Assembly: GCA_000165345.1 (NCBI GenBank)
Contig: CM000430.1
Span: 1-64,000, forward strand
Length of the DNA: 64,000 bases
Direction of reading: 5' to 3'
The position numbers and the translations under genes were made by a program. This document shows positions 7,844 to 62,038 of the stretch, piece by piece (positions within the stretch are counted from its first letter, which is position 1; each line of letters starts with the position of its first letter). The notes below the pieces were generated by a model. The model worked only from the letters and a program-made list of their open reading frames with translations, was not told the DNA's origin and ran no database searches.

Positions 7844-9346
7844 TTATCTAATTACAAAATTTTTTAAATCGTGATTAGTTTTGCAATCAGAATTTGTCTC
7901 TTCAATCCAAGAGAACGTATTACATTTTTGTTGGTCAGATTTTGGACAACTCCAATATAGTCTTCCTTTATTTACACCTGACTTTGTTACCTTCTTTTTT
8001 ACACAGGGGATTCCATGTTTACATTGGGGATGATTTAAAGAGATTTTATTATTTATCTTAAAATCATGGCTTTTAATAGTTTTATTAATTTGACCTTTTA
8101 CTTCAACTTTACTTAAAGTCAGAAACTGACTAATTGTACTTTGTCTTTGCTTACATTGAGGCAAGTACTTAGAACAAATGCTAGGGGGCTTCCTTTTTTC
8201 ATTATTATACAAAGATTCAAATTCTCCCGTCTTTAAAATTAGTAAAATAGGACAGTGATCAGAACCATATATGTGATCAAGTATCTCACACTTTATAGAT
8301 TCTGATATTAATCCTTTTGAAATAAGAAATAAATCTATTCTAGTTCCTTGATTTCTAATTCTAGACTGATTCATTTGGCTCCAACATGTGTATTTGTTAT
8401 TAGTTCTTGGATAATAATGTCTATATGCATCAACCAAACAATATCCTTTAATCATCTCAATATTCATCCTTCTCATATGCATATATGCTTTAGCAAAGGA
8501 GGAAGTTTCAAAGATTTCCTTAGGGCTTGTTAGCATACATGGCGCCAATTTGCAATTGTCGAGTATCCCACAATCATCATAACAATCAATTTTTTCCAAT
8601 ATAATGTTAAAGTCTCCCGCCAAAATGACATTTCTTTTGCATGCATTTTTAAGTACATGTAATAATAAATTAAGATATTCTTGGAATGCAAGTCTATATT
8701 TAAATCTCTCAGGATCAACAGTTTCTGATAGTTCAATTCGTGTTTCATTTTGATTTTGAATTTCTTTTAACATAACTTCTTCTTTTTCCTTTTCTTCCTT
8801 TTCTTCAGCTTTGCTTCTTAGTAAAGGAACATATAAATTTAGCAATACGAATTGTTTATGATCAGTAATTACACATCTACCTTCTCCATCTATTTCAGAT
8901 ATAGATATCCCATATTTATCTTTAATTTTAGAAATATCGGATTCAATTTCTTGCAATTTTTCTGTTTGAATCATTTGGTTTATGTCAAATTGACATGGAT
9001 TTGATTCTAGCCAAGAAAACCCCTTTGCCGCCTCAATTACCATAGTTTTTTTTGAACAATAAGTAGCAACTCCGCTATATCTTTTATTATTTTCAGCAAG
9101 TGAAAAATATGATTCATAATTTCCAGGACATCCTATTGAGTTGTTTAAATCATCTCCAAAGCTCATTTTACATTCTTGAAGGCATATTATGTCTGGGCTC
9201 TTCACATTTAGATTAGCACTGGTAACTTCATCGTTTACGCATATGTTATCAAGTAATTTAGAAAAATTTGATTCTGTGTAACCTCTTCTTTTTGTGAATG
9301 ATATTAAACCATTTACATTGAAAGAAATTATTGACAATTCCCTCAT
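7844..9346 (-). CDS. APE2: AP endonuclease 2-like (ExoIII/EEP family) with C-terminal GRF-type zinc finger
   Basis: 500-aa ORF. ISFNVNGL, DIICLQE, GDFNI, RIDLFLIS, GSDHCPI EEP-family motifs. Acidic EEKEEKEKEE insert. C-terminal CKHGIPC...GRLYWSCP...CNTFSW matches the zf-GRF pattern typical of APEX2. Confidence 0.8.
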   Translation of the reverse strand: MRELSIISFNVNGLISFTKRRGYTESNFSKLLDNICVNDEVTSANLNVKSPDIICLQECKMSFGDDLNNSIGCPGNYESYFSLAENNKRYSGVATYCSKKTMVIEAAKGFSWLESNPCQFDINQMIQTEKLQEIESDISKIKDKYGISISEIDGEGRCVITDHKQFVLLNLYVPLLRSKAEEKEEKEKEEVMLKEIQNQNETRIELSETVDPERFKYRLAFQEYLNLLLHVLKNACKRNVILAGDFNIILEKIDCYDDCGILDNCKLAPCMLTSPKEIFETSSFAKAYMHMRRMNIEMIKGYCLVDAYRHYYPRTNNKYTCWSQMNQSRIRNQGTRIDLFLISKGLISESIKCEILDHIYGSDHCPILLILKTGEFESLYNNEKRKPPSICSKYLPQCKQRQSTISQFLTLSKVEVKGQINKTIKSHDFKINNKISLNHPQCKHGIPCVKKKVTKSGVNKGRLYWSCPKSDQQKCNTFSWIEETNSDCKTNHDLKNFVIR

Positions 9347-37367: not shown

Positions 37368-38930
37368 TTAATCTTTATAATTTGTTTGTTGTTTCTTAAT
37401 TCTAACAAACATGGTCTGCTTGTGTGTAATTTTATATTTAGAGTTAATCAACTTAATAAAATGTCTAATTTGATTATTTTCAACCATAGTATAAGTATAT
37501 CCTATTTTTCCAGCTCTTGCAGTTCTTCCAGCTCTGTGAATATAAGTTTTAATATTGTTAGGAACGTCATAATTAATAACAATATCAATATCAGAAATAT
37601 CAATACCTCTTGCTAAAATATCAGAACAGACAAGAATATTGAATTCATTATTATTAAATTTTTTCATTAGTAGATTTCTTTCCTTTTGAAGCAATAAACT
37701 TGAAAATTCTTCAACAAGTAATTTTTGAACATTATCTGAAGAATCATTATTAGTTTCTGAATTATCAGTATTATTAATAGGAATGAGTATTTTTCTATCT
37801 TGAATATCTTCATTATTAGAATCATTTATATTGTTATTTTCATCTTTAGTATTAACAATAAAGAATAAGTCATCTCTATTAGATTTACTTAATTCTTGTT
37901 GCAAATACTTGGTGAGATTTGAAGTAGTTTCCTTGCTTGAACAAAAAATGACTGCTTTAAAATAAGTTTTATAAGCTTTTGGAATTCCTTTAATTTCAGA
38001 TTTTTGATCTTCTGTTACTAATTTACTTAAACTTTTTCTTTGCTTCTTATTTAATAATAATTGATATATAAGACAAAGTAAAGTTTGTGGTTTATATTTC
38101 TTATTTGTAACTTTAACAAATTTTTGGGACATTCTAGATGGTATATTTGACTCTCCAGTAACTGAGCTGATAAAGTATATTGGACGTACTAAATCCAATT
38201 GATTTAACTTATAAGGACTATTAGAAATAGTTGCAGATAATAGAATTCGAATAGGAGTTTTTTTTGCTAATCCTAATTCTCCATTATCTTCTTTAGATAA
38301 TATATATTTTGAAATATTATTCACAATAGATAGCCAATCATTATAAGGTTGAGATAACAATCTATCAACTTCATCTACAATGATAAAGTGAATATTTCTA
38401 AATAATTCAGGTATTTCCTGTTGATCTTGTGATATTACTAGTTGATTATAATGCTCACAAAGTCTTCCTGGAGTTGAAATTACAACATCTGGTTGTATTG
38501 TGCTTAATTGATGCATTTCATTAGAAAATGATTGTTGTCCTGTTAATGTAGTAATCTTTATAGGAAATCTACCTTTGTTAACTTTTGTAAATATTGTGAA
38601 GACATTTTTAACTTGATTTGCTAATTCTCTAGTAGGTACAAGTACTAATACTGATAAATTTGGATATGTTCTATTATATAAGTAATTTGCTATAGGAATT
38701 ACATAACATAAAGTTTTTCCTTCTCCAGTTGGAACTGAAATACAAACATCACTACTATAGTAATTATTCACATCACAATTAATTCCATCAAGTATATAAG
38801 GTATTACTTTTTGTTGAATTGGAAAAAAACCTGTAAAACCTTCAATTTCTTTAAGTCCTTTTTTTATATTCTTATTAAATCTTTTAAGAAGGCTTTCATC
38901 ATTCTTTTGGTCAATTTCTGTATTATCCAA
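37368..38930 (-). CDS. DExD-box ATP-dependent RNA helicase
   Basis: 520 aa. Motif I PTGEGKT, Ia PTRELA, II DEVD, III SAT, VI HRAGRTARAG. Several Asn-rich inserts. Confidence 0.8.
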   Translation of the reverse strand: MDNTEIDQKNDESLLKRFNKNIKKGLKEIEGFTGFFPIQQKVIPYILDGINCDVNNYYSSDVCISVPTGEGKTLCYVIPIANYLYNRTYPNLSVLVLVPTRELANQVKNVFTIFTKVNKGRFPIKITTLTGQQSFSNEMHQLSTIQPDVVISTPGRLCEHYNQLVISQDQQEIPELFRNIHFIIVDEVDRLLSQPYNDWLSIVNNISKYILSKEDNGELGLAKKTPIRILLSATISNSPYKLNQLDLVRPIYFISSVTGESNIPSRMSQKFVKVTNKKYKPQTLLCLIYQLLLNKKQRKSLSKLVTEDQKSEIKGIPKAYKTYFKAVIFCSSKETTSNLTKYLQQELSKSNRDDLFFIVNTKDENNNINDSNNEDIQDRKILIPINNTDNSETNNDSSDNVQKLLVEEFSSLLLQKERNLLMKKFNNNEFNILVCSDILARGIDISDIDIVINYDVPNNIKTYIHRAGRTARAGKIGYTYTMVENNQIRHFIKLINSKYKITHKQTMFVRIKKQQTNYKD

Positions 38931-39539
38931 CTGACTAATTTGAATCCATCTATATTAATTAATTAGTATAATAGTTAATTCACTTATAATTAATATATCA
39001 ACAAATTCTAACTTACCTCTTAGTCCATGTAGGAATATCAATCATTGATTCAAAAAGCTACTTCCTAACTTATAGTTTCATTCAATCACTCAAATAATTT
39101 CTGTATAATAATAATAATATTTAATATTTTAATATATTTATATTTTAACCTATTAACTTGTTATTGAAATTTTTAATCTGGTTATTATATTGTATCTATT
39201 TTTTCTTAGATTATTTTAAATCTATTTAATATATTTATACCAATTAATTGATTCTATTCCTGGTCTAATACTTCTTCAAATCCATAAAATAATAAGTCCT
39301 CTTTTTTATTTTTTTTAGCTTCGTTGTTAATTGACTTGCAACATTTACCGCCATAACTGTCAAAATTATCCCTTTATGCAATTTTACCTTTATTTTTGAC
39401 ATGATTTATTTTGGCGCCACACTGCTTCACAAATATTTGTTGCAGTAAAGAAGGAGGAAAAAGTTAGAGGTAATGAAAAAGTTTAAATAATACTCAATAA
39501 ATATGAACAACTAAATATTTTTTAAATATACAGTAAACT

Positions 39540-39550
39540 GGGGGGGGGGG
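39540..39550. repeat. G11 homopolymer in the divergent helicase/RPL29 promoter
   Basis: ctg + 10 g, then aataatg. This is the longest G run in the window. Confidence 0.8.
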
Positions 39551-40037
39551 AATAATGAAGAAATAAATTAGAGTTGAGAAAAAAAGAATGTTTTATATTA
39601 GTGGGATGTATTTCAATAATATTAAGTTTAGTGAAGTTTGAGGAAATAAAAGAAAATGAATCTTCAATATAAGAAGAGAAACATAATATTTCTTTTTAGT
39701 TATATAATTTTTTTTTTTTTCATTTATTTTTCTCTATAAGACAATTAATAATAAAAAATACAATGGGCGGGAAATCTCGAGACGGCCTTTAATATTATTA
39801 ATAATTATTTATATTTTATCACTTTTATTATTATTAACTAGTTAAAGTTTGATCTAAAATATTTAGTATATAATTGATAAAACAAAAGGTTTATAAATTA
39901 GTTAACATATTATATATATATTTATTTATTAAAAAAAATTAGTATTTTTAAAAAAGAATTCAGCGGAAAGTCTTGGGATTATATTTAATTAAATTAATAT
40001 AAGGCACAAACTTTAATTTTTTTTTCTGAAAACAAAG

Positions 40038-40382
40038 ATGGCCAAATCAAAGAACCATACTAATCATAATCAGGTAAGTAATAATTTATTGGATTAGAGA
40101 TAACGTGCTTTTCTTTGTATATCATTAAATTTTGTAACATTGAAAAGAAGTTATCCTTGATCTGATTATATATAATTGGATAATTTACTTTTCTCTTTTG
40201 TTATTTAATAATAGAACCGTAAAGCTCACAGAAACGGAATAAAGAAGGCAAAGAGCTACAGAAAGTTACCAACATTCGGTATGAATGCTAAATTCTTAAA
40301 GAACCAGAGATTCTGCAAAAAGGTTGCTATGAAAGAAGCAGCAGCAAAAGCAGCAGCAGCCAAGAAAGCTCTCTTTAACTAA
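40038..40382 (+). CDS. RPL29: 60S ribosomal protein L29e; two exons 40038..40073 and 40215..40382, intron 40074..40214
   Basis: Exon 1 encodes MAKSKNHTNHNQ and ends at GTAAGT. The intron ends ...aatag. Exon 2 encodes NRKAHRNGIKKAKSYRKLPTFGMNAKFLKNQRFCKKVAMKEAAAKAAAAKKALFN then stop. Conserved L29e N-terminus. Missed by the ORF track because of the intron. Confidence 0.8.
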
Positions 40383-40786
40383 ATAAAACCTATTAATATA
40401 AGATTCAATTAGTAGGACATAATTCTATTTATGTCTGATTTCACAATATAGTAGGTATTGAAACATTCTTTTCCAAGCTAGGAGTTTAACCTTATTTTGA
40501 AAATTAATAAATCTCGACTTTTTTGTATTTTCAAACCTTCATTGTTACATCTAATAATACTAGTAAAAGTTAAAAATAATGAAAGAAAGAAATTTGATTT
40601 CTATTATACGAACAATTAGTAACCTAAATTCTAGGATGTCCTATTTTTTTTAATAGTACCTTTGATGGCTTAAAAAAAAAAAAGAAATAGGTTAAACCAA
40701 TCATGTAGAGATGTAATAAAGAAAAATTTAGTTTTCTATATACTCCTTCCAAACCAGTAATGAGTTATCACTACTAATTATTCAGA

Positions 40787-41125
40787 TTAGTCAAACAATG
40801 AGAAACCTAGGTCACCTTCTTCTTCCTCCTCTTCTTCCTTCTTCTTTTCAGCTGGAGCAGAATCTTGTGCTGCACCACCAGATGCTGCTGCTGCACCACC
40901 AGAAACTGCAACACCACCAGTTGGAACAGATTGGAGCTTGGATAAACCAGAGGCTATGACCTCATGGCTGAGTTTTCCACTCATATTGGAGATCAAGACA
41001 TCAATGATAGATTGGTCATATTCGATACCTACAGATTCCAAAACCTTCTTGATATCAGAAGCTGTTGGTTGTTCCTTTCCAGATGAAACGCAAAGTAAGT
41101 AAGCTGCAACGTATTTCATACCCAT
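40787..41125 (-). CDS. RPLP2: 60S acidic ribosomal protein P2
   Basis: 112 aa. [10 protein letters not shown]-terminus. Ala/Gly-rich hinge. Acidic tail [16 protein letters not shown]. Confidence 0.92.
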
Positions 41126-41581
41126 TGTTAATTAGTCTTGTCAAGGTTTCTTTTTTTTCCTTTAATTATAAAGTCTTAAAAAAAAATTGAATTAAAAAAA
41201 TTCAATAGGCTGATCTTGTCAAGGGAGAAAAATATTATTAACCTAATAAAAAAATGTATTATTGTACTATTTATTCAACAATTAATTTTTATATTTATAC
41301 TAATATAAATATATATTAAATATAATATATATTTACTAAATTATATATTTTATAATACTATTTTGTATTATTATAATATATTATTTAACTTTTCAAATAC
41401 CTTCATTCATTTTACAATTATTTCAAATTTTACTTTGTCTTCAATTTGACAAATTTAACTGTCTTTATTATTTTTACATATTTTATTATTTAATTTCATT
41501 CATTTTATTATACCTGTTTTTTGAAGACGAGACAGCCACGTCTACAACAATTATTACCAAACAAATAAAATATATTTGATG

Positions 41582-41610
41582 GGCGCCACATCCCGCAATT
41601 TAGGCGGGAT
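41582..41610. promoter_or_regulatory. E2F-like GGCGCC plus inverted repeat ATCCCGC-N7-GCGGGAT in the divergent RPLP2 / SERP1-like promoter
   Basis: gggcgccac atcccgc aatttag gcgggat. The arms are reverse complements and resemble canonical TTTCCCGC E2F half-sites. Confidence 0.5.
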
Positions 41611-41959
41611 TTGATAAATACATAAATTGTTTTGAGGGGGAGAGAGGGGGGTTAGTTAATTATTATTTATATTTAGTTATGAAATAGGATATTAATAATA
41701 TAATAAATTAATAGTAATTAAAAGATATATATAATAAGAGAGAGGGTATATTATTATTTAATGATATTATTATTTGATTAAGGATATAAATATCTAGTAT
41801 TTAATACTAATTAATTGTTATTTAAAAAGAATTTCTCATTAATATAAATTAGTTAATAGCTTGTACTGCATTCTTTTTTTTAAGAAAAAAAATTATCATT
41901 TTATTTACTGCAAGTTTATATTTAAATAAAATTAATTACAATTAAGTGAGGACTTAACA

Positions 41960-42280
41960 ATGGTAAGTTTTTTTTTTCAATAATCTATTATGCACTTTTA
42001 TATTATAAGAAATATTCAAGTGCATACTAAGTATTAACATTTCTAATTATTAAGAAAGACTAACTATAAATTACATGCTATTTAGGCACAATCTAGATTT
42101 ACAAAACTCAAGGGTGAATTATATGAAAAAAACATTGATAAGAGAGGAAGTGTTTCATCTTCTAAGAAGAAGAGTGGATATCCCGTTGGTCCATTTGCTC
42201 TAGGACTCTTTATTTTTGTAGTTATAGGTTCAGCAATCATCCAAATGATAGTTAGTGCTACTACCAAACATTTGGATTAA
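41960..42280 (+). CDS. Stress-associated ER protein SERP1/RAMP4 homologue; exon 1 is the ATG only (41960..41962), intron 41963..42085, exon 2 42086..42280
   Basis: ATG is immediately followed by GTAAGT. The acceptor is ...ctatttag. The spliced product is MAQSRFTKLKGELYEKNIDKRGSVSSSKKKSGYPVGPFALGLFIFVVIGSAIIQMIVSATTKHLD. GPFALGLFIFVVIGSAIIQMI parallels the RAMP4 TM segment [21 protein letters not shown]. The antisense ORF 42082..42267 is spurious. Confidence 0.7.
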
Positions 42281-42482
42281 ATATCTTAACTTTCATATTT
42301 GAATCTAGTGAAGATTTAATTATTATTAAATTTATAATTATTCGTTTTTGCTCATTTTTCTTGATTTCTATTTAATGCTTATTATTTTAAGTTAGTTACA
42401 ACTGAGCAAATCTAGTTTTGTTTTCTAATATAATAGATACAAAAGAGTCGAACTGTAGTAGTAAGCATTATCAATACTATGA

Positions 42483-43457
42483 CTAATACAAATTTGATAT
42501 GGAGTTAAATTGCTTCTTTGAATAATGTTGATTTATTTTCAATAAAGTGGTTATTTTGGCTTTTGGAAGAGTAATAATATCGGATGATTTTGGAAGAGAT
42601 AAAATCATAGTCTTTTCATGATTTCCTTTATTATTATTATTACTATTACCAATTGTTGATATTGACCTACTAATTATACAGTAATGGTCACATAAACAGT
42701 GGATAATTTTTCGAAGTAGTTTATTACAACCTTTGATTATTATTGAATTGGAGCTTTGACCAGAATTTAGATGTGATTCAAATTCAGAGGAAAGAAAACA
42801 AAAACTATTATCAACACTTTCATCCTTGATATTGTAAACTTTCATCATTTTGCAATCTTTTTCTGAAATAATAACTAATTTGTGAGCATTTTCATGTAAT
42901 TTTTCTTGTTTTTGTAATTCATTACTCTGAATTAGTTCAATAATAAGATTTTCTATATTTGATATAAATCTAACCAAATCATCTCTATCTAGAAGAGATA
43001 ATACTTCTTGAAAGATTTTACTTAAATAACCAGTAATACAATGCTTTAAATTAATATTAGCAAAATTTTCTGACAGAATATTTTCATCACAATTTTCATT
43101 ATTTAAGAAATAATTTTCATTAAGATCCAAATTTGAACATATTTTCTTTAAACTTGCAAGAAAGTTTCTTGTAGGAATTGCCAAACTTTCTCTTGGGGTT
43201 ATCATTAACTCACCAAGTTCCTCATTTCCTTCTTTACGATCCAAGAAAAGTTCATGTAACTCGTCATCTGAGCATAGTCTAATCCAAATACTTGGAGAAA
43301 TTACATAATTTGGATCTCGAAAAGAAGATGAGATAATTAATGACTCAATTTCATCAAATTCAAAATTATCACAGTATTGGTGAATCTGAAATGCTCTACC
43401 TTTGTTAATTAATAATTGATTATTTAACCAACGACGATATTTCCTACTTCCCAACAT
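42483..43457 (-). CDS. Hypothetical protein
   Basis: 324-aa ORF, no domain recognised. Size and spacing fit the gene array. Confidence 0.5.
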   Translation of the reverse strand: MLGSRKYRRWLNNQLLINKGRAFQIHQYCDNFEFDEIESLIISSSFRDPNYVISPSIWIRLCSDDELHELFLDRKEGNEELGELMITPRESLAIPTRNFLASLKKICSNLDLNENYFLNNENCDENILSENFANINLKHCITGYLSKIFQEVLSLLDRDDLVRFISNIENLIIELIQSNELQKQEKLHENAHKLVIISEKDCKMMKVYNIKDESVDNSFCFLSSEFESHLNSGQSSNSIIIKGCNKLLRKIIHCLCDHYCIISRSISTIGNSNNNNKGNHEKTMILSLPKSSDIITLPKAKITTLLKINQHYSKKQFNSISNLY

Positions 43458-44264
43458 TTTAATTAATTCACTCTTCTATTCAGAAGAATAGCAAATAATA
43501 ATGCACAAATTACTGCTGTCTAGTAATTGGGTACAACCCTAATACCTTCAATAAGTATTTCTTAGTGGGGTGGTATACCAAAATGAGTGTATTTATTAAG
43601 TTTTATTTATAGATATTGATTAAAAAGACTTCACTGTACCACACTCTCAGTCTATGATGGGCTCTTAATTCTAGAATAAATTTGCCCTTCTAGAGCTGGC
43701 CTGGCTTATTTTTGTCATTTTTTTTTTATTAAAAAAGCATTTATTTTTTTTTGACTTTAGTACTAACTTTTTGCCTCCCCTTTTTTTACCAAAACTAAAT
43801 TGCTTATTATTCCCGCCCAAACTAGTAGTGTAATTATTGACTAAATAAATTGCATGCACAAAAACAATAAATTATTATAATAAACTACATGACTAACAAA
43901 TAATAAGAAAATATTTTGCTTTTGAATAAATTAATCTAATTAAGAATATTAATTCAATATTTTAAAATATAGAGCTTTATATAAACTATTTAAAAATTAA
44001 AAAAAAAATGTTTCATTTTGCATTAAAATAGAAAGTCAAGAATTAAGAGAAAAAGCAATACTATTTGGCAATTTTAATTAAAGTCGAATATTATAAATCA
44101 TTATATAAAATAAGAAATATGTGGAAAGGGCGGGCAAAACATGTAAATTATATTTAGGAAATATAAAGAAAAGAAAGCAAAAGAATAATAATATAAATAA
44201 TAAAAGTCAAATCATAATAAACTTATATATAAATAAAAAATAATAATAAACAAAATCTATCTAA

Positions 44265-45344
44265 TTATAAAAAGAAGACCTTCCTATTTACTTGTAAATC
44301 AGGTCTCCACAAATACTCATAAATACCTTTTTTAGTATTAAAAGTACCTTCTTGTATCCACATAAGTTTTAATGTAAATCTTGGACCAATTTCCTGTAGT
44401 CCAGCACTATTAATAGCTTGATCTTGTTGTTCTTCAGCATTTTGTGTGCTGGTTGTTCTTTTTTTACGGAAAATGTATCTATAATGTCTGAAAAAAATAA
44501 AGTCTCTTTGGTTATGGAATGCAATAACTCTTCTACCAGCAAAATCTGGATTAAATGGAAACAAAGAAGCTAGTTGTCTTCCTATTCTATAACCAATTCT
44601 AGTGTCAAAATTATTCAATATAACTTCAGGATTATGTGTAGTAGAAAAGGCTGAGCCTTTCATATCTTGTGCAAGTTTAACAGATCTAATTCTGAAATAA
44701 CTTGTAGGTCCTATAGGAAGATGGCATATATACAATCCCCATGGAATTTTTTTAATTGGGTGTTCAGTAAATATTAAAATATCAGTATAGTTATTTTCTG
44801 TTCCTTTTTCATTAACTTCTTTAATAATATCTTTAATATTAAATCCATTTCTTTTGTAGAAATCGCAATTAGGAATTATTGAAACAATTTCCTTAAGAAA
44901 GTTGTACATATGCTTACTAGCTTTATTATTAGTTGTGATAAGTAATTTGGGTGATCTTTTTCTAGAAAAATAATCTGAAAATTCATCATTTTCCATTTCT
45001 TTATGCAATTCTTTATCATTTAATGGATCATGAACAAAAGTTTCATCAATTTCACGTGTATTTTCTATTGTTCTAGGTATTCCTTTAACTACTTCCTCCC
45101 CTCTTTTCTCTTTCTCTCTATTTTCTCTCCTTCGTTTACTTTTTTCCAACTTTTTTTCTCGTTTAAGTTGATTGGCAAGTTCTGCTCTTTTGATTTTATT
45201 CTTGATATTCTTCAAATCAATTTCTTTATTAGCTAATTCCGTTTCCTTATCAACTTTGTCTTTTACATTTTTTGATGACTTACTTGCATTTTTTTTATTT
45301 GCAGTGTTTTTATCAGATATTTGTTTTTTTTCCTTGTTACTCAT
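44265..45344 (-). CDS. RPF1: Ribosome production factor 1 (Brix domain, RPF1-like)
   Basis: 359 aa. Lys-rich N-terminal region. Brix core PKLLITTN ... HNQRDFIFFRHYRY ... GPRFTLKL. C-terminal VNRKVFFL resembles the RPF1 tail RRKFHL. Confidence 0.7.
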   Translation of the reverse strand: MSNKEKKQISDKNTANKKNASKSSKNVKDKVDKETELANKEIDLKNIKNKIKRAELANQLKREKKLEKSKRRRENREKEKRGEEVVKGIPRTIENTREIDETFVHDPLNDKELHKEMENDEFSDYFSRKRSPKLLITTNNKASKHMYNFLKEIVSIIPNCDFYKRNGFNIKDIIKEVNEKGTENNYTDILIFTEHPIKKIPWGLYICHLPIGPTSYFRIRSVKLAQDMKGSAFSTTHNPEVILNNFDTRIGYRIGRQLASLFPFNPDFAGRRVIAFHNQRDFIFFRHYRYIFRKKRTTSTQNAEEQQDQAINSAGLQEIGPRFTLKLMWIQEGTFNTKKGIYEYLWRPDLQVNRKVFFL

Positions 45345-46026
45345 TTTGTATTAATAGCGAAATCCAATAATATCGTAAACTCTATTACTAGTATACTAGC
45401 CAGAATAATTTATTTCCTTTCTTATTCTCGATTTGAATAATTTTATTAAGTCAAGGATGAATATAGGTTTAATTCAAATAGGTATTTATTGGTATTTTTC
45501 TATACCATAATACCAGAGTATTATTTTAAGAAAAACTCTCTAAATTTATTCAGTAATAATTTTATTCAATATAAATCTTGAATTTATTTACTAAATAAAG
45601 ATTTTTTACTTGTATTAATCAATTAAACTCGTCATTATTGTGTTAGTTGTCAGTAAATTACATTTCTCTATTTAATTAAGCAGTTGCCGCCTAAATTGGG
45701 CGGGCACATGCGATAACGAGACGAAATTAATAAAAGGCAAATTAATATTAATTATGACCATAATAAATAAATATTAATAATAATATGAGACATATTATAT
45801 GTATGTTAAATGTTAAAATATATAAATAAAGGCACAATATTATTAATGTATTTAAGAGACGTGTAGGGTGGTTTTGAAATACAAATGAAAATATATCAAT
45901 ATTATTAATATATATATAAATAAGCTTTCCTAGTTAAACTAATTAAGCGGAATTATTTTCTTGAACAAAAAAAAATTCTTCCAGGACAAATTCGGTGTTG
46001 TTTTTAAAAATTCAAAAAATATAACA

Positions 46027-46422
46027 ATGAATAACTTTACAGTCAGAGTACGTCAATTTTTAAACAATCCTCTCTTAGCCAGAAAGCAGTTTGTTGTTGA
46101 TGTTATTCATCCATCATTAGGAGGAGTCAGCAAATCTGACTTGAAAGCTAAATTGGCTAAGTTATACAAGGTCCAAGATGCAAACTGTATTGTATTATTT
46201 GGTTTCAAGACTGCCTTTGGTGGTGGAAGATCCTCCGGATTCTGTGTAATATATAATAACATTAGTGCCTTGAAGAAGTTTGAACACAGATATCGTCAAG
46301 TCAGAATGGGTATTGCTGAGAAGGTCACAGCAACTGGTCGTAAGGGTAGAAAAGAAACAAAGAATAGAAGAAAGAAGGTTAGAGGTACCGAGAAGGCTAA
46401 GATATCTGGTGGAAAAAAGTAA
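46027..46422 (+). CDS. RPS24: 40S ribosomal protein S24e
   Basis: MNNFTVRVRQFLNNPLLARKQFVVDVIHP...FGFKTAFGGGRSSGFCVIY...KNRRKKVRGTEKAK matches S24e. Start assigned to the Met aligning with S24e N-termini. An in-frame upstream ATG at 45961 would add 22 residues. Confidence 0.9.
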   Translation: MNNFTVRVRQFLNNPLLARKQFVVDVIHPSLGGVSKSDLKAKLAKLYKVQDANCIVLFGFKTAFGGGRSSGFCVIYNNISALKKFEHRYRQVRMGIAEKVTATGRKGRKETKNRRKKVRGTEKAKISGGKK

Positions 46423-61380: not shown

Positions 61381-62038
61381 GTCTCTCTGTCAAATGAAAA
61401 TCTCTATTGAAACTTCCTAAATATTTATCTTGTATATTATATTCGACCACAGTTTATTCAAACTGAATTCCTATTAATTACTACTTTTAACTTTTCAATT
61501 TTCAAGCCTTATTAGCGGCTTTAATCTTATTCTCAATATATTTATACCTTCCCGCCTTAGGCGGTAATCTTTGAATCCTTTCTTAACAATGATTGCACTA
61601 AATTGCATGTTAGAGTGAACATTTTAACAACTCCAAACTTAATTTTCCTTCCTTATACTAATTGCTTTGCCTTAATTTTTATAGATGTTGATTGTAATTA
61701 TACTTCCAGTAATTCTTTATATTTTGTAAATCTTATTCAATATTGTGATAATTAAAATAAACTTGAGGCGCCAACATTTTGAAAATTTATTTTGATTTTA
61801 ACGATACCTATTTGCAAATAAATGTGTAAATATCTAAAAATAATATGATTTGAGAGATAAATTTGACTACGATCATTTTGAATTTATTTTGACCATATTC
61901 TATTTTGTAGATGGATATGATTAGTTGTTTACATTTATATCTCAAATAATTATTGGGAATATAAGTTTTAATTCTAGAAACCAATCTAAAAATTAAATTC
62001 ATAAGAAAAGAAATTAAAAATTTGGTATATTCTCAAGA

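Follow-up and report, generated by a model that had tools for sequence, protein, structure and literature searches.

The window, that is, the whole 64,000-nt stretch of DNA analyzed here (28.6% GC), holds a small two-exon gene on the plus strand at positions 41960-42280. Coding exon 1 (41960-41962) is the ATG start codon alone, and it is abutted by a GTAAGT donor (41963-41968). The phase-0 start-codon intron (41963-42085, plus strand) is 123 nt long with a GC content of 19.5%, carries a branch-point-like ACTAAC at 42059-42064, 21 nt from the intron 3' end, and terminates in TTTAG at 42085, with the acceptor TAG at 42083-42085 and its AG at 42084-42085. Coding exon 2 (42086-42280, plus strand) encodes residues 2-65 and ends with the TAA stop codon at 42278-42280. 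A first-pass annotation made from the sequence alone had proposed an ATG at 41960 immediately followed by GTAAGT, an acceptor at 42085, and a spliced product of 65 aa. Re-reading the sequence gives the same coordinates, and translation of the ATG joined to 42086 yields a protein of that length, MAQSRFTKLKGELYEKNIDKRGSVSSSKKKSGYPVGPFALGLFIFVVIGSAIIQMIVSATTKHLD, in which the segment quoted at the time (GPFALGLFIFVVIGSAIIQMI) is present. Exon 2 adds 64 residues and holds the whole RAMP4 domain, and exon 1 therefore supplies the initiator Met only. The unspliced reading from ATG 41960 is MVSFFFQ followed by a stop. In addition, the acceptor TAG is an in-frame stop for exon 2, and because there is no in-frame ATG before the one encoding Met55, exon 2 is not translatable alone.

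The spliced product was searched against Pfam, and the results show a match to RAMP4 (PF06624) with an E-value of 3.3e-22 and a score of 78.7 bits (the curated gathering cut-off is 24), in which residues 2-58 align with positions 1-59 of the 60 positions of the profile. A phmmer search against the sequences of solved structures found the SERP1 chain 8rjb_4 of the rabbit ribosome-Sec61 structures 8RJB, 8RJC and 8RJD (E=2.7e-8). Together with exact identity to annotated C. parvum proteins, these matches bear out the earlier assignment of the product to RAMP4/SERP1. A profile search of the wider family returned 799 proteins, and PF06624 is present in all 120 that were listed; members of the family are 60-66 aa long. 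Alignment of six Cryptosporidium sequences with mammalian SERP1 gives 20 invariant positions, including V35, G36, P37, F45, V46, V47, G49, S50, A51, and Q54. Conservation with mammals is weaker in the N-terminal, putatively ribosome-binding part than in the transmembrane helix, and the N-terminal residues common to SERP1 are E12, N17, R21, G22, and V24. The N-terminus is hydrophilic, the net charge of residues 1-34 is +6, and lysine accounts for 12.3% of the 65-aa product. The predicted transmembrane segment or tail anchor, GPFALGLFIFVVIGSAIIQMIVS, is encoded at 42188-42256 on the plus strand (codons 36-58) and includes G49-S-A and Q54; hydropathy peaks at residues 39-57, and seven residues (ATTKHLD) follow the hydrophobic core. 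The product is thus predicted to be tail-anchored, with one C-terminal transmembrane helix.

The same gene structure, with the ATG|GT start-codon intron, is found in nine species, C. parvum and eight others. The annotated genes span 321 nt in C. meleagridis, 319 nt in chipmunk genotype I, 364 nt in C. bovis, and 497 nt in C. ryanae, each yielding a 65-aa product, and the acceptor side in these four reads ...AG|GC(A/T)CA(A/G)TC. The loci of C. andersoni, C. ubiquitum, C. felis, and C. canis, in which the gene is not annotated, were fetched by synteny via the neighboring Brix-domain protein, and tblastn shows an intact exon 2 beside the P2 gene in all four, with 72-91% identity. The gene lies on the minus strand in locus orientation in each of them, at L006:12429-12674 in C. 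andersoni (intron of 55 nt), L008:9015-9327 in C. ubiquitum (116 nt), L009:8740-9054 in C. felis (121 nt), and L010:8955-9272 in C. canis (121 nt). All four have ATG|GTAAGT at the start and a TAG directly before the Ala codon, and their predicted products are 63-65 aa long. C. andersoni belongs to the gastric clade (PMC13125899), and the start-codon intron thus spans the intestinal and gastric clades. Between distant species, intron identity falls to 34-54%, while exon 2 retains 72-90%; product identity across the genus is 72-98%.

The nine-base ATGGTAAGT at the start has one match in the 64-kb window, where 0.46 would be expected, and 38 of 100 shuffled windows contain it at least once. Because its occurrence is within chance, the case for the gene model rests on downstream context and conservation. 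The same figure lends some room to a reading in which ATG 41960 is not the true start, and translation begins in another upstream coding exon or at a non-ATG codon inside exon 2. We consider this very improbable. The Pfam profile starts at residue 2 and family members have 60-66 aa, and therefore no N-terminal part is missing. In every species checked, an in-frame TAG immediately precedes exon 2 and ends its frame on that side, and no upstream ATG lies in frame with it. Moreover, the donor GTAAGT is kept at the corresponding ATG in all nine species except chipmunk genotype I, which has GTAGGT, despite intron lengths ranging from 55 to 299 nt. The window also holds no other intergenic ATG|GT candidate of this kind. 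Five further ATG|GT(A/G)NG sites in it precede an open frame; each is embedded in a long ORF, and we rejected them as chance matches. Initiation at ATG 41960 followed by splicing is thus strongly preferred, and taking all of the evidence together, we are highly confident that the locus is the C. parvum orthologue of RAMP4/SERP1 (yeast Ysy6), with an ATG-only exon 1, a 123-nt intron, and a tail-anchored product of 65 aa.

A mechanical list of ORFs shows only two here, an antisense ORF of 61 aa with a TTG start (42082-42267, minus strand) and an out-of-frame ORF of 42 aa. This would be compatible with the RAMP4-like stretch being a decaying pseudogene or an unexpressed relic, with the antisense ORF, or nothing at all, as the functional element. 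The comparison among species argues strongly against this. Substitutions in exon 2, summed over all species pairs, number 58, 49, and 307 at codon positions 1, 2, and 3, and the plus-strand frame is intact over 63-65 codons in nine species; because of this bias and the intact frame, the RAMP4 frame is judged to be under purifying selection. The antisense frame is broken by stops in four of five species and has no Pfam match, and we rejected the antisense ORF as a gene on these grounds, in agreement with the first-pass annotation, which had called it spurious. It arises as a by-product of the coding strand. We therefore regard a pseudogene or relic as extremely unlikely and retain the plus-strand RAMP4 gene. 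The case illustrates that ORF-based scanning is blind to genes with an ATG-only first coding exon; where protist genomes are poor in introns, this blind spot is systematic for small proteins.

For C. parvum, public records already contain this gene together with its splice model and family name. An exact-sequence look-up returned EAK87401.1 (named 'hypothetical protein', C. parvum Iowa II), QOY43202.1 (CPATCC_000926), KAL5369825.1, and WKS76327.1, and the UniRef name of the exact product is 'Ribosome associated membrane protein RAMP4'. The same 90% cluster contains the C. hominis, C. tyzzeri, and C. meleagridis proteins, which are named 'Stress-associated endoplasmic reticulum protein'. The RAMP4 model is included in the CPATCC/CpIA annotation (Baptista et al., 2022; PMC8744675), the introns of which are stated to be 100% supported by RNA-seq, and the 123-nt intron thus has indirect transcript support and is probably spliced in vivo. 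A 38-nt sequence spanning the spliced junction had no match among metagenome contigs, a set that is uninformative here since C. parvum transcripts are not expected in it. About 6 kb around the gene (39308-45289) is almost identical to the C. parvum assembly GCA_048859185.1, and the sole difference within the gene is a T10/T11 run inside the intron (41967 region). Across this segment, the differences from that assembly are mostly indels, several of them at non-coding A/T runs, which could reflect strain variation or assembly error. A literature search found no published work on the localization, Sec61 or ribosome binding, or gene-specific expression of Cryptosporidium RAMP4.

The situation differs in C. 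andersoni, C. ubiquitum, C. felis, and C. canis. In the records examined, no RAMP4 gene is called in any of the four, and their predicted products are absent from a collection of 15 billion proteins; because the stretch carries no called gene and the products are missing from the collection, RAMP4 appears to be unannotated in these species. The first-pass annotation had described a protein this small as easy to miss. This does not hold for C. parvum, for which EAK87401.1 exists, but it does hold for these four species, whose annotations can be corrected, and comparisons based on missing orthologues should not score RAMP4 as absent from them. The missing calls in the four species and the correction concerning the promoter palindrome described below are the only additions made here.

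The surrounding region (37368-46422) contains genes for a DEAD-box helicase, L29e, P2, RAMP4, a Brix-domain protein (RPF1/IMP4-like), and S24e, a run related to translation and ribosome biogenesis, and the genes keep the same order from C. parvum to C. andersoni. The L29e gene (40038-40382, plus strand), two genes away from RAMP4, has a 141-nt intron at 40074-40214 (GTAAGT...AG) after codon 12, the second 5'-proximal intron in a translation-related gene, less than 2 kb from RAMP4. Between RAMP4 and the Brix gene lies an ORF of 324 aa (42483-43457, minus strand) with no Pfam match. Its identity is 91% in C. meleagridis, 72% in C. ubiquitum, and 33% in C. andersoni, and tblastn found no match to it in the C. 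bovis and C. ryanae loci (L003 and L004); from these comparisons it is a fast-evolving or lineage-restricted gene. In C. bovis and C. ryanae, RAMP4 lies next to the Brix gene, and P2 and RAMP4 are about 1.5 kb apart, compared to about 0.8 kb.

Upstream of RAMP4, on the minus strand, lies RPLP2 (40787-41125), which encodes the 60S acidic ribosomal protein P2 (Pfam Ribosomal_60s, E=2.2e-21). The two genes stand head to head across an 834-bp intergenic region (41126-41959), presumed to contain the promoters and 5' UTRs of both; the divergent arrangement noted earlier is thus real, and the order is conserved in nine of nine species. The 32 nt preceding the ATG (41928-41959) are near-identical in three species. 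The first-pass annotation had also pointed to an ATCCCGC-N7-GCGGGAT element in this region. The inverted repeat, ATCCCGCAATTTAGGCGGGAT, is present in C. parvum at 41590-41610, where 0.01 would be expected by chance, but conservation of its left arm fails already in C. meleagridis, where the arm reads CATTTTTC. In chipmunk genotype I the arm reads CATCTCAC, and of the nine species compared, C. parvum is the only one in which it was found. The right-hand, conserved part of the repeat is an E2F-like site, TTTAGGCGGGA (41599-41609), flanked by GGCGCC at 41582-41587 and by a G/GA-rich box at 41634-41651. Seven of the nine species carry an exact or near-exact copy of this site, which invariably lies on the RAMP4 strand, about 400-480 nt away from the start of P2; in chipmunk genotype I the right-hand site reads AGCGGGA, and no exact match was found in C. 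felis or C. andersoni. Because one half-site alone is conserved, we rejected the 21-nt palindrome as a conserved regulatory unit.

The window contains six copies of GGCGGGA (0.22 expected), at 8615, 26237, 39766, 41603, 43811, and 61550, several of which take the form TGGGCGGGAA or TTTAGGCGGGA. Although long ORFs take up 68% of the window, four copies are intergenic. One lies upstream of L29e, one in the P2-RAMP4 spacer, and one in the gap separating the 324-aa gene from the Brix gene, while the copy at 61550 is flanked by divergent ORFs. The E2F-like element is of a known kind (Oberstaller et al., 2013; PMC3734150), and its palindromic form is a peculiarity of C. parvum. Through the shared E2F-like and GA-rich region, RAMP4 may be co-regulated with the neighboring ribosomal protein genes, and it may also be co-expressed with ribosomal protein genes.

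An exon consisting of only the start codon had been described in the first-pass annotation as an unusual architecture. We do not uphold this, because start-codon introns are a documented, over-represented class and the RAMP4 protein fits the profile of the class. A survey of vertebrates, arthropods, fungi, and plants found phase-0 introns to be sharply enriched between codons 1 and 2 (Nielsen and Wernersson, 2006, BMC Genomics 7:256; PMC1626468), and the host genes encode short, lysine-rich, conserved proteins without a signal peptide, dominated by ribosomal and ribosome-linked proteins. The RAMP4 intron is also typical in length and composition of C. parvum introns, which average 84-99 nt with 22% GC and occur in 4-11% of genes (PMC4637869). 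The start-codon position is no general property of RAMP4 genes, as judged from two animal genes. Those of Tigriopus and zebrafish lack an intron after the ATG and are instead interrupted after about codon 27-28, the zebrafish gene a second time near codon 52. Among the 120 matches listed in the profile search, which we examined for other alveolates, four are from Cryptosporidium and every other named match is from an animal.

The RAMP4 intron may be a neutral survivor or a contributor to expression. In other intron-poor genomes, 5' introns of highly expressed genes aid expression. We entertain, as a tentative and rather doubtful suggestion, that the intron has been kept throughout the genus, despite the loss of most introns from the genome, since splicing of a 5'-most intron is needed for efficient expression or couples RAMP4 output to the ribosomal-protein regulon. 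If this were true, RAMP4 would resemble ribosomal-protein genes in both promoter and intron architecture.

By analogy with the mammalian protein, Cryptosporidium RAMP4 would be localized at the ER and would act at Sec61. It would be inserted by a tail-anchor pathway. The structural work of Lewis et al. (2024; PMC11186639) is the source of the hook and lateral-gate mechanism, including the kink glycine and the amphipathic lumenal half of the helix, and by homology to mammalian RAMP4, the basic N-terminal hook would attach to the large ribosomal subunit close to the exit tunnel, in contact with eL19, eL22, and eL31, while the glycine-kinked helix would occupy the open Sec61 lateral gate. The helix would hold the pore ring wide with the plug not displaced, and its amphipathic lumenal half would complete the lumenal funnel of the channel. 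RAMP4 would be displaced once the gate is occupied by a signal peptide, by a transmembrane segment, or by the multipass translocon, and the protein would thus be a dynamic accessory subunit of the co-translational translocon.

We compared the gene and its setting with known systems. The annotated Cryptosporidium orthologues (including C. hominis/C. tyzzeri P0006 and C. meleagridis KAK9173780.1) are 65 aa long and identical (C. parvum) or 82-98% identical to the product. At the five loci whose DNA was read (the second C. parvum assembly, C. meleagridis, chipmunk genotype I, C. bovis, and C. ryanae), exon 1 is one codon long and the ribosomal protein P2 gene lies immediately upstream on the opposite strand. 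There is no difference of substance between the window and these orthologues, the window being C. parvum. Like the members of the start-codon intron class, the gene has a phase-0 GT...AG intron after codon 1 and encodes a short (65 aa), conserved protein with 12% Lys and no signal peptide, from a ribosome-associated family; unlike them, it belongs to an apicomplexan, a group outside the 2006 survey, and to an intron-poor genome. Its intron directly after the ATG also sets it apart from the RAMP4 genes of Tigriopus and zebrafish. The region between P2 and RAMP4 resembles the C. parvum promoters described by Oberstaller et al. (2013; PMC3734150) in having GGCGCC, TTTAGGCGGGA, and a G/GA-rich box; it differs in the C. 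parvum-specific doubling of the half-site, which is not conserved, and the E2F/DP1 site is putative.

The closest functional comparison is with mammalian RAMP4/SERP1, SERP2, and yeast Ysy6. The product has 65 aa, compared to 66 aa for the SERP1 chain in 8RJB, and shares with SERP1 the basic N-terminal cytosolic segment, the short linker, and the C-terminal tail-anchor helix. It differs in its identity, which is about 46%, and in a linker that is three residues shorter in Cryptosporidium. Such a level of identity to mammalian SERP1 would also be expected if the gene model were right and the protein had diverged into a small tail-anchored ER protein of a generic kind, without association with Sec61. 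RAMP4 is, furthermore, reported to be absent from several early-branching eukaryote lineages and therefore dispensable in some (Lewis et al., 2024; PMC11186639). We nevertheless consider such a change of function unlikely. The residues around the glycine kink, which Lewis et al. (2024; PMC11186639) identify as the most conserved part of the protein, opposite the Sec61 polar cluster, are invariant, and the basic N-terminal region retains E12, N17, R21, G22, and V24. Conservation of the FVVxGSAIxQ core, including the kink glycine, favors a Sec61-associated RAMP4.
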